Shown: in pieces, positions 5,225-12,921 of the stretch
Layout of the letters: each line of letters opens with the position of its first letter
How positions within the stretch are numbered: the stretch's first letter is position 1
Source: Candidatus Heimdallarchaeota archaeon
GTDB lineage: Archaea > Asgardarchaeota > Heimdallarchaeia > Hodarchaeales > Hodarchaeaceae
Length of the DNA: 12,921 nt
Reading direction: 5' to 3'
NCBI GenBank assembly: GCA_019057635.1
Contig: DXJL01000197.1
Location: 1-12,921 of the forward strand
Notes under the pieces: generated by a model
What the model saw: only the letters and a program-made list of their open reading frames with translations
What the model was told of the DNA's origin: nothing
Database searches by the model: none
Program-made: the position numbers and the translations under genes

Positions 5225-6607
5225 CTATCGTAAAGGATCTGCATCAACATATTTCCAAAAAATAAATACAGAAACCAGGATAATAACAGAGGCGAGTGGG
5301 CCAAATAATAGGTAACCTTGGGAAAATGTTCTTCCTGCATAATTAGTAACAGATGGGAAAAAATCAATCATAACCCCAATGAGTAAATACCCTACAAATT
5401 GGAAGATATTCAAGGGGATGGATTCAAACCCATAATACATACCTGCACGACTTTCTCCTGTTTCTTGTTCATCCTTCTCTACGATATCACCAACAATTGC
5501 ATAAGGGAGAAGATAATATGCCGATAATCCACCAGCAGCTAGTATAGCAAAAATTATGCCTTGTACGAGAAGCGGAAATGGAATAAATTCAAGTTGGCCA
5601 ATAAACATCATTAGAGGCATGACAAATGCAAGATAGATCATTGAGTAAATGTAACTTTTTGTTTTGCCGTATTTTGGATTAGATCCAACTCTTGCCCAGA
5701 ATACGTACCCAGTAAAGATACTCAGTAATAAAACAACACCAAAAATAAGATAATCCACAGTACCAAAGCCGAGTACATCCTGAATCCAGGCTAAAACAAT
5801 TCCTAGTAGTCCTGAAATCATGATCGATAAAGTTCCGCGAGCTAAAGTCCAAGAAATATAGTTGTGGTTCGAGAATACGACTTTTAACTCTTCACGGATT
5901 GGCGGTTGAGGGATGAACACCTTTTTTTCGTGAATTACAAATAAGGAGGGGATAAAGAAGACAATAACTGAAGTTGCAAATATAAGGACAATAAACGTGA
6001 TGAACATTCCATTGGTCAGAAAGGGGAGAAGTTTGTTTGCTTCTTGAAAAGCTGATGGAGTAAATTCTTCTGATGAAGCACCTATTATAGCTGGTATTAG
6101 GAAAGAAGTTCCAGCACCAATGACAAACGCGATTAAATTCACTGTATTCTGGTAACCACTTACCTCAAGCCTCTCTTGTTCAGTTGTGATCTCAGGAAGC
6201 CATGCTTGATATGGAGTAAGTAAAAATCCATATAACGCCTGGTAAAGGGAATTAAAGATTAAGAGATAACTAAAGATTACCCCAGTATCAGTTACTCCAG
6301 CGATGAATATATGAGGCGAGTACAGCATAAAGAAACACACGGCTAAGAGAGGGGCACCTATTAGAATGAAGGGCTTTCTACGTCCCCAACGTGTTTTAGT
6401 ACGATCAGAAATGTACCCTGAGAGATAGCTTGTAAGAGCAATTACTAATTTTCCAATGGCTACACCCAGAAATGCGAGAAAGGGGTCCTCCGATAAACCA
6501 AAAAATGCATAATAGACAAAACCAGTAAAAAGATCAGCCATATCAATAGTAATAGATGATCCAAGTCTTCCTATACCATAACTTGCTTTTTCTTTGAATG
6601 TTAACAT
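5225..6607 (-). CDS. MFS transporter, glycoside-pentoside-hexuronide (GPH/MelB-like) family
   Basis: About 12 hydrophobic segments; N-terminal KEKASYGIG; loop motif GYISDRTKTRWGRRKPFIL; PYQAWLPEIT..QER; C-terminal IVGDIVEKDEQETGESRAGMYYG. The ORF-track GTG 6616 is part of SD GGTGA, so ATG 6607 is preferred. Substrate unknown. Confidence 0.92.
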   Translation of the reverse strand: MLTFKEKASYGIGRLGSSITIDMADLFTGFVYYAFFGLSEDPFLAFLGVAIGKLVIALTSYLSGYISDRTKTRWGRRKPFILIGAPLLAVCFFMLYSPHIFIAGVTDTGVIFSYLLIFNSLYQALYGFLLTPYQAWLPEITTEQERLEVSGYQNTVNLIAFVIGAGTSFLIPAIIGASSEEFTPSAFQEANKLLPFLTNGMFITFIVLIFATSVIVFFIPSLFVIHEKKVFIPQPPIREELKVVFSNHNYISWTLARGTLSIMISGLLGIVLAWIQDVLGFGTVDYLIFGVVLLLSIFTGYVFWARVGSNPKYGKTKSYIYSMIYLAFVMPLMMFIGQLEFIPFPLLVQGIIFAILAAGGLSAYYLLPYAIVGDIVEKDEQETGESRAGMYYGFESIPLNIFQFVGYLLIGVMIDFFPSVTNYAGRTFSQGYLLFGPLASVIILVSVFIFWKYVDADPLR

Positions 6608-6650
6608 GATTTTCACCGAAAAAAGATGTACCAGATTGAAGATAGGTTGG

Positions 6651-8772: not shown

Positions 8773-10002
8773 TTAAACATATTTGCGTCCTTCTTCTCTA
8801 TATCTTTTTACTCGCTGTTCCATGTCCTCTTCCCCACGAACTTCTTGAAGATCACATTTTATACCAATTCTGTAACCTGCCTTAACAGTGAAACCTGCTT
8901 TACAAATACCTCGTGCTTGGCGGCCTGCAGTCCTTTGGGTTATCAAACCCGACCCCTCAGTAAAAGCAAGAACAGCTGTCTTTGTAGATTCATTAATCTC
9001 AAGGGTTGCAGATTCGTTCCCGCCTAATTCAGTAAATTCACCATCAACATAGTATAAAGTATATTGGCTCTTTCGAGATGGTACGGGGGCTGTAGGAGCT
9101 ACTCCGAAACCAGTTTGAACTGGTTGGGGTGTAGGTTTGGGTTCGGGTTTAGGCTCATCTTTTATTGGAGGAGGCTTTGGAACATATTGTTCTTGTCGTG
9201 GTGGACCTGAAATTTCACTTGTTGAAGTACTGGAAGGTGGAGGAGCTAATTCAGCAGGAGGTGTTACAGGTTCTACTGGAGCAGTTAGATCAGCGAGAGA
9301 ACCACTCATACTTGCTTGAATAGCGGATGAATCGTCTTCCCGTATTAAATCGCTACCGCTTATGGAATTAAAAAGATCCCAAAATCCCTCTGGTTCGTAC
9401 CCTTCACGAATTTGGTAGACCATTGGGGTTCTGTCGCGATCTACATCTAATTTCCGGGCCACACGATTTCCTGCAACTTTTTCACCAATCTGTGAGCTGG
9501 CACCAACCCAGACATACAGATCATCGAACGCATCCAATACAAATACGTCATCAGAGACAAAGCTTTCACGTTTCAAAGGCACTTTTTCAATTGCTATATC
9601 ATCTGATGATGAACCATCTGAAAGATCAGTATCACGGACTCTGTAGAGAGCATAGCTAATGTCTTCTTTATTTACTTCTACGTGTTTTAGAAACCCAGGT
9701 GTGTCTCCTGTCACGACTACGAATTCTAATAATCCTTTAAACTCAGCTGATTCATTTCCTTCGACTTCAGTGTCGATATCTATTTCTTTATCAGCGAGAT
9801 CCAATTGTTTTGCAGCCCAAGCACCAACTGCTCTATCATCAGCATATGCTTGAGATCCTAACCAGATGAACACCTTTTTCTTGAGGCCTGCGGAGACATC
9901 AGAATTATCGATGATATAAACGTCCCCATTCAAGAATTCAAAGGATCCATTTTTCTTGTTTATTTCAACTAGTTTTTTTCCTTGAACATGTAACACACGC
10001 AT
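8773..10002 (-). CDS. Gelsolin-family actin regulator: two gelsolin domains, Pro-rich linker and an extra C-terminal domain
   Basis: Domain 1: FLNGDVYIID..VFIWLGSQAYADDRAVGAWAAKQLD..EVEGNESAEF. Linker: GDTPGFLKHVE. Domain 2: LYRV..VPLKRESFVSDDVFVLDAFDDLYVWVGASSQIGEKVAG..IREGYEPEGFWDLF. These follow the gelsolin G1/G2 consensus. ATG 10002 is preferred over the ORF-track TTG 10008. Confidence 0.9.
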   Translation of the reverse strand: MRVLHVQGKKLVEINKKNGSFEFLNGDVYIIDNSDVSAGLKKKVFIWLGSQAYADDRAVGAWAAKQLDLADKEIDIDTEVEGNESAEFKGLLEFVVVTGDTPGFLKHVEVNKEDISYALYRVRDTDLSDGSSSDDIAIEKVPLKRESFVSDDVFVLDAFDDLYVWVGASSQIGEKVAGNRVARKLDVDRDRTPMVYQIREGYEPEGFWDLFNSISGSDLIREDDSSAIQASMSGSLADLTAPVEPVTPPAELAPPPSSTSTSEISGPPRQEQYVPKPPPIKDEPKPEPKPTPQPVQTGFGVAPTAPVPSRKSQYTLYYVDGEFTELGGNESATLEINESTKTAVLAFTEGSGLITQRTAGRQARGICKAGFTVKAGYRIGIKCDLQEVRGEEDMEQRVKRYREEGRKYV

Positions 10003-10025
10003 GAACAATCAACCTTTAATGTGAA

Positions 10026-10042
10026 TTAATAAGTAGTTTTCG
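10026..10042 (-). promoter_or_regulatory. BRE-TATA promoter candidate for the gelsolin gene
   Basis: Minus strand CGAAAACTAC-TTATTAA: a purine-rich BRE-like element followed by a TATA-like box ending about 24 nt before ATG 10002. Confidence 0.45.
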
Positions 10043-10306
10043 ATCTTTATTCTCTCTTTTAACCAATATCAAAGAGATTTTTTCTGTGAATGAATTTCTT
10101 TCAATCGATTTGAATTGTCTAACCTACAATGTTGACCTTTATTTATGTAGCTTATTTAATTAACTTTGTGCATATTTTCTCTCTTTTCCATTTATTCGTC
10201 TCTTGGATCCGACATTATGAATAAGGGGCATTAAACTTGGAAAGCATGTAAAATATAGTACAAAACAAGCTATATTATGATGATATCAATTGAATAGCAT
10301 TCAGCG

Positions 10307-10324
10307 AGGAACCTTAAGGTTCCT
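10307..10324. repeat. Perfect 18-bp palindrome AGGAACCTTAAGGTTCCT
   Basis: The sequence equals its own reverse complement, and its central TTAA contains the stop codon of the 10314-11237 gene. Confidence 0.9.
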
Positions 10325-11237
10325 TCCCTTCTAGCTTCCTAATTTTTTCCTTTAACTTCTGGACTTGATATGTAAGGACTTGATTTTGAGCTAGAATATC
10401 CATTACAAAGTCTTTTAGTTTTCTTACTTCCCTTTCATCATGAGTCGCTAAATCGATCGCAATGTTTACCGTTGATCGTAAATTTTCTAAAAGATCATCA
10501 AACCATTTGACCGGATATTTACCCTCATTCCCTTTCTGAAAGTCGATCCACTCACGGACCCACTCCTCAATAAATGATTCGATGAATTGTAAAAATGATT
10601 TTTCCTTTAAATATGGTAAATTGCGAGGAAATAGTAAGAATAGGTTCATTACCCTGCCTGTTAATGCAATTCTAGGATCTTTACTACTTGGAGCAGGAAC
10701 CAAGAAATCGTAACTTACATGTATCATATCCGTACGATTGGGAACATTTAGAGGTTCCTTAAATCCAACCTGAAATTCGTTTAGTTTCCCCATATAGGAT
10801 ATAGTCTGCCCTTGTACAGCTAGCAATAATGTAGTTTCTTCATTAATGAAGCTGGGACTATAAACCACCTTAGGTCCTCTAGCATCATCAAAAGCTGCCA
10901 CTACAATACCTATTAAATTCTCTCGCAGTGTATCACGATCTTTTCGCCGAGTTTGGAGCTGCAAATCGATATCCGTGATGTCTATCATTTCATCTGCTAA
11001 AAGAATGTATAAATCTTTCTTGTACTTCTGATAATATAAACGAGAAAACGCGTACTCGGGTAGATTCTTCTGAAGAATAACAGTATCATCCATTTCAAGA
11101 GCTGGATCATTATAAAGTTCAGCAATCAATATATCCTCATCAGTTTTTGTAAGGATTTTTTGACGTTGAAGTTTTTGGTCGATAATATACAAACCTTGCT
11201 CGTTAATGAGCCAAAATCGATAATAATTCCCTATCAT
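10314..11237 (-). CDS. Uncharacterised cytoplasmic protein: N-terminal longin-like segment, uDENN/longin-like domain and C-terminal leucine zipper
   Basis: aa 108-128 LIGIVVAAFDDARGPKVVYSP resembles the beta1-beta2 hairpin (F-x-x-x-x-G-P) of NPRL2/folliculin/SMCR8/C9orf72-type longin domains. N-terminal RFWLINEQGLYIIDQ resembles a longin hairpin. Heptad repeat at aa 271-302. SD-like GGAG upstream, and only 33 bp separate it from the previous gene. CDS status is solid; domain calls are by eye. Confidence 0.65.
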   Translation of the reverse strand: MIGNYYRFWLINEQGLYIIDQKLQRQKILTKTDEDILIAELYNDPALEMDDTVILQKNLPEYAFSRLYYQKYKKDLYILLADEMIDITDIDLQLQTRRKDRDTLRENLIGIVVAAFDDARGPKVVYSPSFINEETTLLLAVQGQTISYMGKLNEFQVGFKEPLNVPNRTDMIHVSYDFLVPAPSSKDPRIALTGRVMNLFLLFPRNLPYLKEKSFLQFIESFIEEWVREWIDFQKGNEGKYPVKWFDDLLENLRSTVNIAIDLATHDEREVRKLKDFVMDILAQNQVLTYQVQKLKEKIRKLEGKEP

Positions 11238-11270
11238 AAAGTAATTGCTCCAATCATCAATTCTAGCTTA

Positions 11271-12920
11271 TCAAAGTTTGGTCAACTGCAGTAAATCTTT
11301 TTGCTCGGCTTCAATTAGTAGATTGATATTTATCGCATGATCTATGAACTCGATGGCTTCACTACGTTTATAATGCTTGGAAAGATGTGAAATAATTTGT
11401 TCAGAGAAGAAGTAATGAGCACCTTCAATATGAAACATGACCTTCTTAATTTCCTTGAACATCTTAACATGTTTTCGTGAAAGCTTCACAGAATCAAGTG
11501 TGAGAACTCCTTCGTTGAGGATATACGCAGAAAAGTAGTGGAGAGGTATATACTTCCTTACCATCTTCTTAACAACGGTATCAGGGATTTGGTCGCTGCT
11601 ATAGAAGTCTTGCAATTCAGCCGTGTATTTATCCTCAAGTTCGTTTCCCAAAGCTTTCAAATGAGTTTGGAAATAATCAGGTAATCGTACCTCGGAGATA
11701 ATAATGAAACTGGAATGATCACCGTGCCAAATTAACATGTGTAAACCCTCACGACTGAGAAATTCAATTTTGTCACGCTCTTTTTCCTCCTCAGACTGGG
11801 AAGTCATGCTTTCTGACAGTTCTTCCATGAAAGAGGACAAAGCAGCACTCATACCAGACAAAGCATCAGTATCGGTTTGGAACTCAGCGATTGTTTTCTC
11901 TGAGTAAAACTGCAAACCTGATTGATGACGAGCTAAGATTAAACGAATCGATTTTATTTCCTCAAAGCTTTGCTCAACAGCAATATCATGTCTTAAAATG
12001 AGTTGTTTACGGGTTCTTCTTCTACGACGAAATACACGGATAGTGCTAACTGCAATAACTACAGAGATCAAAACAACTACCACAGCAATTAAAACAGTAG
12101 TGATTACTTCAAAAATGTCTATTGCTGGTGGAAGGATTTTATAGGATTCTAATTCATTAGCTGGCATACTATAAGTATAAGGTAAGCCTGATAAGCTAGG
12201 AGCTGAGTAGATAGTAATATTCGTGAATTTAATAGCATCTCTAGTATAGATACCATCAATAGTGTACGTAGCTCGATAACTTGAATTATCAGTCTGTTTT
12301 ACCCCTTCGTAGATTCGTGTAGTCCCATTTTCGTATTCTAACACAATATAAAAGGTGATAGTTACTCTTCCTAGGGGAACCTGTTGAGTGACACCCGCTC
12401 CACCTCCAGAGACATAAGCTAAAGTAGCAATAAAAATAATGTCTTCACCTTGTTGGATGTTCTTTCCAGGTTCTATTTCAAAACTTATTTCTGTTTCATA
12501 TCCATCTATAGAAACATTAAATGAAATTGATTGGCTTTCATATCCATAAATGCTTAAAATGACCGTCATATTGTATTTTCCATATTGAATACCTGTTGTT
12601 TCTAGTACAATTGAAAATGGTGCGTTTGCTGAAAATGTAACATGACTAATATCAACAGAGGAGTCATTTAACAGAATATTTGCGTTATCGATAGTGCTAA
12701 TGATATCTGATTTGTAAGTTAGGAACTCTTCAATTGTCACAGTAATGGTTTCCTCTACCATAATTTGATTACTACTAATAATATAAGGATCTATTGTTTG
12801 TGTAGGCATTTCCACAATGTTAAATGTCAGTAAAATGAAATTCTCTTGATAGATAGAGTGACTAAGAGTAATATTAATTTCATAAGAACCTAAAGATAGT
12901 GAACTTGAACTTAAATTGAA
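11271..12920 (-). CDS. Large single-pass membrane protein (5'-truncated): extracellular Ig-like beta repeats, TM helix, cytoplasmic longin-like domain and C-terminal winged-helix-like domain
   Basis: The frame stays open upstream of the ORF-track GTG 12815 to the window edge (FNLSSSSLSLGSYEINITLSHSIYQENFILLTFNIV-EMPT), so the true start is outside the window. TM VITTVLIAVVVVLISVVIAVSTI is followed by RVFRRRRRTRK. The cytoplasmic part IRLILARHQSGLQFYS..DTDALSGMSAALSSFMEEL..IEFLSREGLHMLIWHGDHSSFIIIS..helix has the beta-beta-alpha-beta-beta-beta-alpha-alpha order of a longin fold. Confidence 0.75.
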   Translation of the reverse strand, partial: FNLSSSSLSLGSYEINITLSHSIYQENFILLTFNIVEMPTQTIDPYIISSNQIMVEETITVTIEEFLTYKSDIISTIDNANILLNDSSVDISHVTFSANAPFSIVLETTGIQYGKYNMTVILSIYGYESQSISFNVSIDGYETEISFEIEPGKNIQQGEDIIFIATLAYVSGGGAGVTQQVPLGRVTITFYIVLEYENGTTRIYEGVKQTDNSSYRATYTIDGIYTRDAIKFTNITIYSAPSLSGLPYTYSMPANELESYKILPPAIDIFEVITTVLIAVVVVLISVVIAVSTIRVFRRRRRTRKQLILRHDIAVEQSFEEIKSIRLILARHQSGLQFYSEKTIAEFQTDTDALSGMSAALSSFMEELSESMTSQSEEEKERDKIEFLSREGLHMLIWHGDHSSFIIISEVRLPDYFQTHLKALGNELEDKYTAELQDFYSSDQIPDTVVKKMVRKYIPLHYFSAYILNEGVLTLDSVKLSRKHVKMFKEIKKVMFHIEGAHYFFSEQIISHLSKHYKRSEAIEFIDHAININLLIEAEQKDLLQLTKL

Positions 12921-12921
12921 A

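Follow-up and report, generated by a model that had tools for sequence, protein, structure and literature searches.

The window analysed here is the entire contig C181 (12,921 bases) of a Candidatus Heimdallarchaeota archaeon from the Hodarchaeales (assembly of 3.19 Mb in 214 contigs, 36% G+C), and it carries a conserved two-gene unit composed of g1, coding for the end of a giant surface glycoprotein, and g2, coding for a protein with two longin-type domains, with the gelsolin gene g3 downstream (Table 1). Structure searches with the predicted model confirmed domain 2 of g2, at the level of the fold, as a longin of the FLCN, Lst4, NPRL2 and C9orf72-SMCR8 kind. We tentatively propose that g1 and g2 are co-transcribed and that the cytoplasmic tail of g1 anchors g2 at the membrane, where the longin of g2, which bears a Gly-Pro (GP) motif, would act on a small GTPase of the Rag/Arf family encoded elsewhere, more likely as a GTPase-activating protein (GAP) than as a guanine nucleotide exchange factor (GEF); a functional tie to g3 would be the weakest step. 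In eukaryotes, the longin pairs FLCN-FNIP, GATOR1 and C9orf72-SMCR8 switch Rag and Arf GTPases on membranes, and the Hodarchaeales, strains of which are now in culture, are the archaeal order closest to eukaryotes. The initial annotation of this DNA had read the three genes as a module of surface receptor, longin protein and gelsolin, an interpretation that is partly supported by the results described below.

Calling of open reading frames (ORFs) placed the three genes on the minus strand, co-oriented and consecutive in the order g1, g2, g3, and returned the 33 bp between g1 and g2 and the roughly 310 bp between g2 and the gelsolin gene that had been annotated. The plus-strand ORFs of the region are of 60-78 amino acids and all lie within g3. 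Gene order was compared in 16 related loci and in a phylum sample of 301 genomes; the closest named relative among the loci compared is that of Heimdallarchaeota archaeon B3_Heim (L001), with 87-100% protein identity over the genes of the window, and the named homologues belong mostly to Hodarchaeales/Hodarchaeota, with a few from Heimdallarchaeota, Promethearchaeota, Thorarchaeota or Hermodarchaeota. The gene order proved to be conserved in the related loci, with g1 directly upstream of g2 in 15 of the 16 loci and g3 directly downstream of g2 likewise in 15. Judged from match coordinates, 22-58 nt separate g1 and g2 in 11 loci; with the first-ATG rule applied to 15 loci, the spacer ranges from -1 to 121 nt. 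A full-length g2 was detected in 17 genomes of the phylum sample, our own included, all from one GTDB genus (a further copy is incomplete, as it runs into a contig end), and a g1 orthologue adjoins it in 16 of these 17, with match-to-match gaps of 24-125 nt. Moreover, g1 and g2 are jointly present or jointly absent in 19 of the 20 scorable genomes of the genus, the exception being G211; G262, whose g2 is truncated at a contig end, was left out of this count. The closed genome G301 (L011) has the g1-g2 pair in a new neighbourhood, between a DNA-alkylation-repair gene and glycoside hydrolases and 145 kb from g3, which remains beside a transporter remnant. Taken together, g1 and g2 constitute a conserved two-gene unit, from which g3 can be separated.

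The product of g1 is the C-terminal 549 residues of a giant single-pass, sequon-rich surface glycoprotein that is truncated by the end of the contig. The single-pass surface protein of the initial annotation is thus retained as regards its topology, with the correction that the ORF covers the C-terminal part of a much larger protein, while the longin-like assignment of its cytoplasmic part comes from a model of low confidence discussed further on. Only one segment of the 549 residues reaches a hydropathy typical of a membrane helix (Kyte-Doolittle 19-residue maximum of 3.19 at residues ~272-294), and the RRRRR sequence on its C-terminal side indicates that the C-terminus lies inside the cell. 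The distribution of N-x-S/T sequons agrees with this topology: eight occur in the 268 residues before the helix, compared with 3.4 ± 1.6 in shuffled sequences (9 of 1,000 shuffles reach eight), and none in the 251 residues after it. The full-length orthologue of L004 has 2,046 residues, starts with a signal-like hydrophobic segment and carries 77 sequons in the 1,767 residues of its ectodomain and none in its tail. Orthologous ORFs span 735 to more than 2,265 residues (1,429-1,438 in L001, 2,046 in L004, 2,064 in L006 and more than 2,265 in L012), and ten of the 14 database matches to the tail are labelled 'partial'. Pfam recognized no family in the partial ORF or in the full-length orthologues from L004, L001 and L007, and neither g1 nor g2 gave a match above noise in NCBIfam and Pfam. 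Sequence comparison further suggests that the ectodomain evolves fast and that the cytoplasmic tail is strongly constrained: the ectodomain is 71-81% identical to those of the close relatives L001-L003 and 31-41% identical to those of L004 and the distant orthologues (L006-L016), whereas the tail retains 66-73% identity in the distant orthologues and 88%, against 31% for the ectodomain, in L004. Mean column identity of the tail was 80% over 12 orthologues. A second giant protein of 1,240 to 1,735 residues is encoded directly upstream of g1 in relatives (L001:221-5209; L004:3-3725); it shows 29-32% identity to the g1 ectodomain while the conserved tail is unmatched, and the two genes appear to encode surface proteins arranged in tandem.

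The tail of g1 comprises 250 cytoplasmic residues, for which AlphaFold2 yielded a poor model from 21 sequences, with a predicted local distance difference test (pLDDT) score of 57.1 and values below 50 at residues 34-59. The order of its elements is one strand, a helix, three strands and a helix; strand 2 of the longin order (two strands, helix, three strands, then helices) was not modelled. In an unbiased VIA-align search of 48,161 chains, ranks 1-28 were all occupied by longin folds and the first different fold appeared at rank 29, with the best Z of 9.2 for Sec22b and Npr2 and 8.8 for NPRL2 and C9orf72; the longin-fold matches further include VAMP7, synbindin, TRAPP, CPLANE, AP sigma, FLCN, the Loki longin and Mon1-Ccz1. 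Residues ~176-245 gave Z values of 6.0-6.7 to winged-helix domains (MukF, the MCM C-terminus, RPA32C, EF-Sec and COR). With moderate confidence, the model suggests that the tail consists of a longin-like domain and a probable winged helix. The tail has no GP motif. A word-indexed search for stand-alone soluble homologues returned 14 matches, which are only fragments of receptor orthologues, and the nearest neighbours in the Atlas are unnamed Asgard clusters of 215-236 residues at 0.85-0.92, to be taken as leads only.

Tails of this type were found in 31 of the 301 genomes, mostly in the own genus (17 of 20) and in family f4 (7 of 11), and the match always lies at the end of an ORF, the ORFs being 209 to 6,884 residues long and some of them cut by contig ends. 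The own genome encodes two further giant proteins with such a tail, on contigs C153 (2,316 residues) and C150 (at least 1,264 residues). The former is followed by a 531-residue protein that has a signal peptide and looks secreted, to which g2 showed no match in hhalign; the latter is followed by a DUF2461 gene on the opposite strand. On C153, a gene for a 303-residue Arf-family GTPase, extended at its N-terminus by about 120 residues (G000:C153:10782-11693; L024:1783-2694), is located on the opposite strand 2.8 kb upstream of the giant gene (C153_2316), from which an acyl-CoA dehydrogenase gene separates it.

The AlphaFold2 model of g2, built from 30 orthologues, reached a mean pLDDT of 79.8 and contains two α/β domains followed by helices 243-265 and 268-304. 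Domain 1 matched the longins of VAMP7 and Sec22b, roadblock/LC7, p14-MP1, MglB and the Mon1 longin in VIA-align (Z 9.6-11.5), as well as COPI zeta. Domain 2 found its best match in the longin of a Lokiarchaeota Roadblock-Longin protein (8yqg; Z 14.6, root-mean-square deviation 3.1 over 147 aligned residues), and Z values of 13.1 for Lst4, 11.6 for C9orf72-SMCR8, 11.1 for FLCN-FNIP2 and 10.8 for NPRL2 of GATOR1 were obtained with model residues ~105-267. The longin part of the earlier longin/uDENN-like assignment thus holds at fold level, as matches to FLCN-type longins at Z 10.8-14.6 and the Foldseek results attest, whereas its DENN part was not recovered: no Pfam match was obtained at E up to 1, and after residue 240 the protein consists of helices and a coiled coil only, ending at residue 307. 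This C-terminal region weakly matched a GCN4 chimera in a leucine-zipper-like manner (E 1.3), and g2 is probably a cytosolic protein that dimerizes through its coiled coil. At the sequence level, a g2 profile compared to all PDB sequences returned nothing meaningful (best E 0.2).

Foldseek searches with the whole of g2 were headed by the multi-longin GEF subunits of BLOC-3, Mon1-Ccz1 and CPLANE (E 5.6e-5 to 1.4e-4), with TM-scores of only 0.16-0.27. These proteins top the list because they contain several longin domains in tandem. This tandem arrangement is common to g2 and the tri-longin Rab GEF subunits (Mon1-Ccz1, BLOC-3 and Fuzzy-Inturned/CPLANE); g2, however, has two longin-type domains rather than three, and its GP motif points to the GAP-type longins. 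The Lokiarchaeota Roadblock-Longin protein (longin 8yqg, roadblock 8yqk) has the same domain order as g2, namely a roadblock- or longin-type domain followed by a longin, but no detectable sequence similarity to it; no publication on 'Roadblock-Longin' was found. Compared to a classical roadblock, domain 1 of g2 lacks the N-terminal helix that separates roadblock from longin (topology according to the available excerpt of PMC10933270).

The GP motif of g2 lies at the start of the strand formed by residues 121-126 in the model. Among the 30 orthologues F116, D117, D118 and G121 are invariant and P122 is nearly so (at least 90%). An exhaustive profile search of 1.84 billion representatives yielded 69 wider relatives at E up to 0.001, none longer than 375 residues, and 41 of them compared to Pfam gave no significant family. 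Among these relatives, 54 of 63 sequences (86%) retain G121 and as many retain P122, and the residues of the candidate arginine-finger loop are conserved even more strictly (D187 in 62/62, R189 in 61/62, G194 in 60/60 and R195 in 58/62). As far as the excerpted text of PMC12290439 goes, FLCN, NPRL2, SMCR8 and C9orf72 carry a Gly-Pro either in the loop that leads into strand 2 or where this strand begins, a feature that FNIP2, NPRL3 and longins without GAP function such as adaptins, TRAPP subunits and DENND proteins lack; the spacing of the motif in g2 is that of W33-D34...G38-P39 in C9orf72, in the numbering used there. The same paper reported a GP motif and an arginine finger in Heimdallarchaeial 'FLCN/SMCR8-type' longins in 2025, in the accessible portion without partners or genomic context. 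Domain 2 of g2 agrees with those longins in fold, in the GP motif at the start of strand 2, in the near-invariant arginines and in its occurrence in Heimdallarchaeia, but in g2 this longin is preceded by a longin/roadblock-like domain and followed by a coiled coil, the gene begins 33 nt behind that of a giant surface protein which has a longin-like tail of its own, and the full-length form was found in a single GTDB genus. Two short motif strings of g2 and two taxon words were not found in two supplementary text files of PMC12290439.

The longin fold, the GP motif and a conserved arginine are likewise common to g2 and the eukaryotic heterodimers FLCN-FNIP2, NPRL2-NPRL3 (GATOR1) and C9orf72-SMCR8, and the occurrence of a GP-bearing g2 next to a tail without this motif recalls FNIP2 and NPRL3, the GP-less subunits named in the excerpt of PMC12290439. 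In contrast to these heterodimers, g2 has neither a DENN domain nor their other C-terminal domains, does not match any Pfam family or solved structure at sequence level, and its candidate partner would be the tail of a transmembrane surface protein instead of a soluble protein.

The Rag-type GTPase context of the eukaryotic heterodimers is paralleled by paralogues of g2 in the same genome. A profile of domain 2 run over 9,607 ORFs of the genome recovered six strong members, namely g2 and proteins on contigs C106, C12, C120, C48 and C69 (E 5.8e-40 to 1.7e-29), and two of these, C12_271 and C48_358, adjoin genes for Gtr1/RagA-type GTPases. On C12 (G000:C12:1853-5597, minus strand; L031) a Gtr1/RagA-type gene of 334 codons, a degenerate copy of 314, the longin gene of 271 and a further Gtr1/RagA-type gene of 310 follow each other; the longin carries the GP motif and scores 121 bits to the family profile, and a fifth Rag-type gene is located 5.3 kb away. 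C48_358 abuts a Gtr1/RagA-type gene (311 residues), with a 735-residue Rag-type fusion 1.2 kb away. Overall, of the genome's seven strongest Rag-type matches, four are located no more than 2.5 kb from a g2-longin paralogue. The context of its paralogues supports a Rag-type client for the g2-longin family and suggests, by analogy, such a client for g2 itself; motif and paralogue context together make a GTPase role of g2 plausible.

A 3,111-residue Laminin_G_3/DUF2341 surface protein with one transmembrane helix and a tail of 197 residues is encoded beside the Rag genes of C48 (G000:C48:2126-15999, L027). Its tail starts with G-L-V-V-S-F-F-D-x-x-x-G-P and aligns weakly to strands 1-2 of g2 (13.9 bits, single-target E 1.3e-6 with the g2 profile; 7.9 bits, E 1.3e-4 with the family profile). 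The genome-wide longin profile scan did not pick it up, and its hhalign probability to the g1 tail was below 1%. If confirmed by its fold, it would represent a fusion of receptor and longin beside Rag GTPases.

Fold sharing is by itself no proof of function, and the longin folds described here might be unrelated to GTPases and instead serve as adaptor or sorting modules, comparable to SNARE longins, adaptor sigma subunits or SRX, for the export, anchoring or turnover of the giant surface protein. The matches of the g1 tail to Sec22b, VAMP7, the N-terminal domains of adaptor sigma/mu, TRAPP subunits and SRX fit such a role, as do those of g2 domain 1 to VAMP7, Sec22b and COPI zeta. We nevertheless consider it unlikely in view of the GP motif, which is kept in most g2 relatives and is reported absent from longins without GAP function (excerpt of PMC12290439), and of the g2-longin paralogues inside or beside Rag GTPase gene clusters.

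Several observations weigh against the proposed anchoring of g2 by g1 and its action on a GTPase. Within the genus, the entire 20-kb neighbourhood keeps its gene order, which in most loci runs on through the transporter, seryl-tRNA synthetase, PAC2 and Cdc48 genes, so that the adjacency of g1 and g2 is partly inherited synteny and, taken alone, weak evidence. Full-length g2 was found only in one GTDB genus among the 301 genomes. At L014 (G211), where g2 and g3 are retained, a divergent dehydrogenase-like gene precedes g2 in place of g1, and the genome, 74% complete, yielded no g1 tail. The g1-tail paralogues on C153 and C150 have no g2-like neighbour. In addition, the tail model is poor (pLDDT 57.1) and its best Z of 9.2 is little above the values of 7-8 typical of unmatched models, and hhalign comparisons of the tail with g2 and two g2 paralogues gave probabilities below 1%. 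Finally, in line with the initial annotation, no Gtr1/RagA, Arf or Ras match was found on C181, nor was a GTPase gene found within 10 kb upstream of g1 in L007.

Alternatively, g2 may act alone, as a soluble coiled-coil homodimer of a folliculin-type longin regulating a Rag/Arf GTPase, as is probable for its paralogues, with g1 as an unrelated adhesin or surface-layer glycoprotein whose tail has another binding partner and their adjacency as inherited gene order. This explanation, which we hold to be somewhat unlikely, is favoured by the synteny of the entire neighbourhood, by the g2 of L014 without an adjoining g1 and by the g1-tail paralogues without a g2-like neighbour, and from the side of the protein by the coiled coil in the g2 model, by 8yqg, the closest structural match of domain 2, being titled a homodimeric longin, and by four other strong family members being free-standing cytosolic proteins. 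The tight spacer, the joint move of the g1-g2 pair to a new neighbourhood in L011 and the joint presence or absence of both genes across the genus argue against it and are consistent with the membrane-anchored unit that we propose. Complex prediction of the g1 tail with g2 scored 0.00 in both runs against a mark of 0.32, without controls, and speaks neither for nor against binding.

The third gene, g3, encodes a two-domain gelsolin, presumably of the calcium type, with a proline-rich linker and is the orthologue of the published two-domain gelsolin (2DGel) of B3_Heim. Pfam Gelsolin was detected in two stretches (E 2.3e-24), and residues 2-219 matched the Heimdallarchaeota 2DGel of PDB 7whf with E 6.6e-85 and Thor 2DGel3 (7c2g) with E 4.3e-25; the protein is 94.6% identical to that encoded at L001. 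The B3_Heim protein PWI47685, of 409 residues, is listed in the available part of PMC9433394 as a 2DGel with an uncharacterised C-terminal extension of 193 residues, and calcium-controlled severing and capping are described for other 2DGels in the excerpts of PMC9433394 and PMC7444086. According to the accessible sections of PMC9433394, the protein studied there was that of LC_3 and not the g3 type, whose extension consists of the proline-rich linker and a ~100-residue domain. The multidomain gelsolin of the initial annotation is thus substantiated, with two gelsolin repeats, a linker of 31% proline and a C-terminal domain. The latter had no Pfam match at E up to 10; it occurs (window 8776-9078) as stand-alone ORFs of 95-141 residues with 42-45% identity in three related genomes, and in the Atlas it lies nearest to small Asgard protein clusters, one of them with Pfam Gelsolin on 28% of its members (0.90, a lead only). 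The start of g3 is more likely the ATG at 10002 than the listed TTG at 10008, as the ATG is preceded by AAAGGTTGA and the resulting 409 residues equal the length in orthologues, including B3_Heim.

The g2-g3 spacer, which measures 114-316 nt across relatives, is poorly conserved in the half adjoining g2 when five close relatives are aligned, whereas the half adjoining g3 contains long invariant blocks. Within the 190 nt before g3 (window 10009-10200, minus strand) these include a TATA-like ACATAAATAAAG box and the inverted repeat CTCTTTG ... AAAGAGAG, the loop of which is variable. The whole window gave no match in Rfam, and the consensus fold of the leader showed a compensatory change in one of 31 predicted pairs. 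By sequence, the conserved 190 nt may represent a promoter plus a conserved leader; the occurrence of invariant blocks near g3, among them the TATA-like box, and the poor conservation next to g2 fit a separate promoter for g3, as had been suspected.

With its own upstream signals and its position 145 kb away in G301, g3 is a conserved neighbour of the g1-g2 pair, and its link to the pair, which rests on synteny, is weak; the initial annotation had likewise rated it weaker than the link between the first two genes. A pathway that extends over all three genes, in which a signal from outside received by g1 gates a longin heterodimer of g1 and g2 and leads via a small GTPase to actin severing or capping by the gelsolin, has to be weighed separately. 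It would be in accordance with the position of g3 after g2 in 15 of 16 loci and in all but one of the 18 genomes holding both, with the joint absence of all three orthologues from G127, G172 and G217, the three genomes of the genus without a g2 orthologue (87%, 80% and 71% complete), and with the persistence of the g2-g3 pair without g1 in L014. The excerpted text of PMC13716822 moreover describes that Asgard archaea crawl with actin-filled protrusions, that this crawling is actin-dependent and that co-immunoprecipitation of Lokiactin enriched five gelsolin homologues and an ARF GTPase. However, the conserved blocks upstream of g3, the unconserved sequence directly after g2, the length of the spacer, the separation in the closed genome G301 and a cluster without a GTPase gene all make such a pathway improbable. 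A fusion of longin and gelsolin was not confirmed among the paralogues by Pfam and phmmer either: the C-terminal half of C12_271 matched neither a Pfam family (E up to 10) nor, in phmmer, g3, and the three other g2-longin paralogues tested did not match g3. Similarly doubtful is the notion of an outside-in unit in which the GP-less tail of g1 and the GP-longin of g2 together form a membrane-anchored Rag/Arf GAP coupled to actin via the gelsolin, which would represent a receptor-linked precursor of the longin GAP heterodimers of eukaryotes.

The membrane-anchored g1-g2 unit that we favour bears on the origin of the eukaryotic longin pairs and of their first tie to a membrane. The cluster adds to the GP-motif longins a candidate partner, namely a transmembrane surface protein whose longin-like tail is highly constrained, as well as candidate client GTPases, encoded by the Rag-type genes beside paralogues in the same genome, and a neighbouring regulator of actin. 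The route thereby outlined, which would lead from the cell surface to small GTPases and possibly on to actin, is testable but unproven. Should g1 and g2 fail to interact, the cluster would comprise three individually known or nearly known kinds of genes in one syntenic block. No paper describing the pairing of receptor and longin was found in the literature, and the preprint on the isolation of Hodarchaeales does not mention 'longin', 'Rag' or 'folliculin'.

Table 1. Features of the g1-g2-g3 region; positions refer to the window unless a locus or genome is given.
Feature	Position	Strand	Remarks and basis
g1	12920..11271	-	549 aa; 5' end open at contig end
g1 membrane-proximal ectodomain part (residues 1-268 of partial ORF)	12117..12920	-	8 N-x-S/T sequons; N-terminal remainder beyond contig end
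g1 single transmembrane helix (residues ~270-294), then RRRRR	12039..12113	-	Kyte-Doolittle
g1 cytoplasmic longin-like domain, predicted (tail-model residues ~20-175)	11499..11966	-	AlphaFold2 model, VIA-align
g1 C-terminal winged-helix-like module (tail-model residues ~176-245)	11289..11498	-	VIA-align, low confidence
g1-g2 spacer	11238..11270	-	33 nt; GGAG ~11-14 nt before g2 ATG
g2	11237..10314	-	307 aa
g2 domain 1 (residues 1-105), longin/roadblock superfamily	10923..11237	-	order two strands, helix, three strands, helix; AlphaFold2 and VIA-align
g2 domain 2 (residues 106-240), FLCN/SMCR8/NPRL2-type longin	10518..10922	-	AlphaFold2 and VIA-align
g2 GP motif F116-D117-D118-x-x-G121-P122	10872..10892	-	start of domain 2 strand 2; orthologue conservation
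g2 candidate arginine-finger loop S185-x-D187-x-R189-I-x-x-x-G194-R195	10653..10685	-	wider-relative conservation
g2 C-terminal helices and coiled coil (residues 241-307) with stop codon	10314..10517	-	model
g2-g3 spacer	10009..10313	-	305 nt; 311 nt measured to ATG
g3	10008..8773	-	411 aa from TTG start; 409 aa from ATG at 10002
g3 gelsolin domains, D1 9736-9936 and D2 9379-9588	9379..9936	-	Pfam Gelsolin E 2.3e-24
g3 proline-rich linker (residues 241-310)	9079..9288	-	70 residues, 31% proline; composition
g3 C-terminal domain of ~100 aa (residues 311-411) with stop codon	8773..9078	-	no family assigned
Stand-alone copies of g3 C-terminal domain	L030:1504-1770; G102:C1:406681-406929; G280:C17:47791-48027		

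Further along the conserved block, only a remnant of 31-34 residues is left of the transporter-like gene of 463 codons (window 5225-6616) in L001 (14624-14725) and in G301 (L029:2840-2932), and the gene is missing from L003 and L014, which indicates local gene loss inside an otherwise conserved block.

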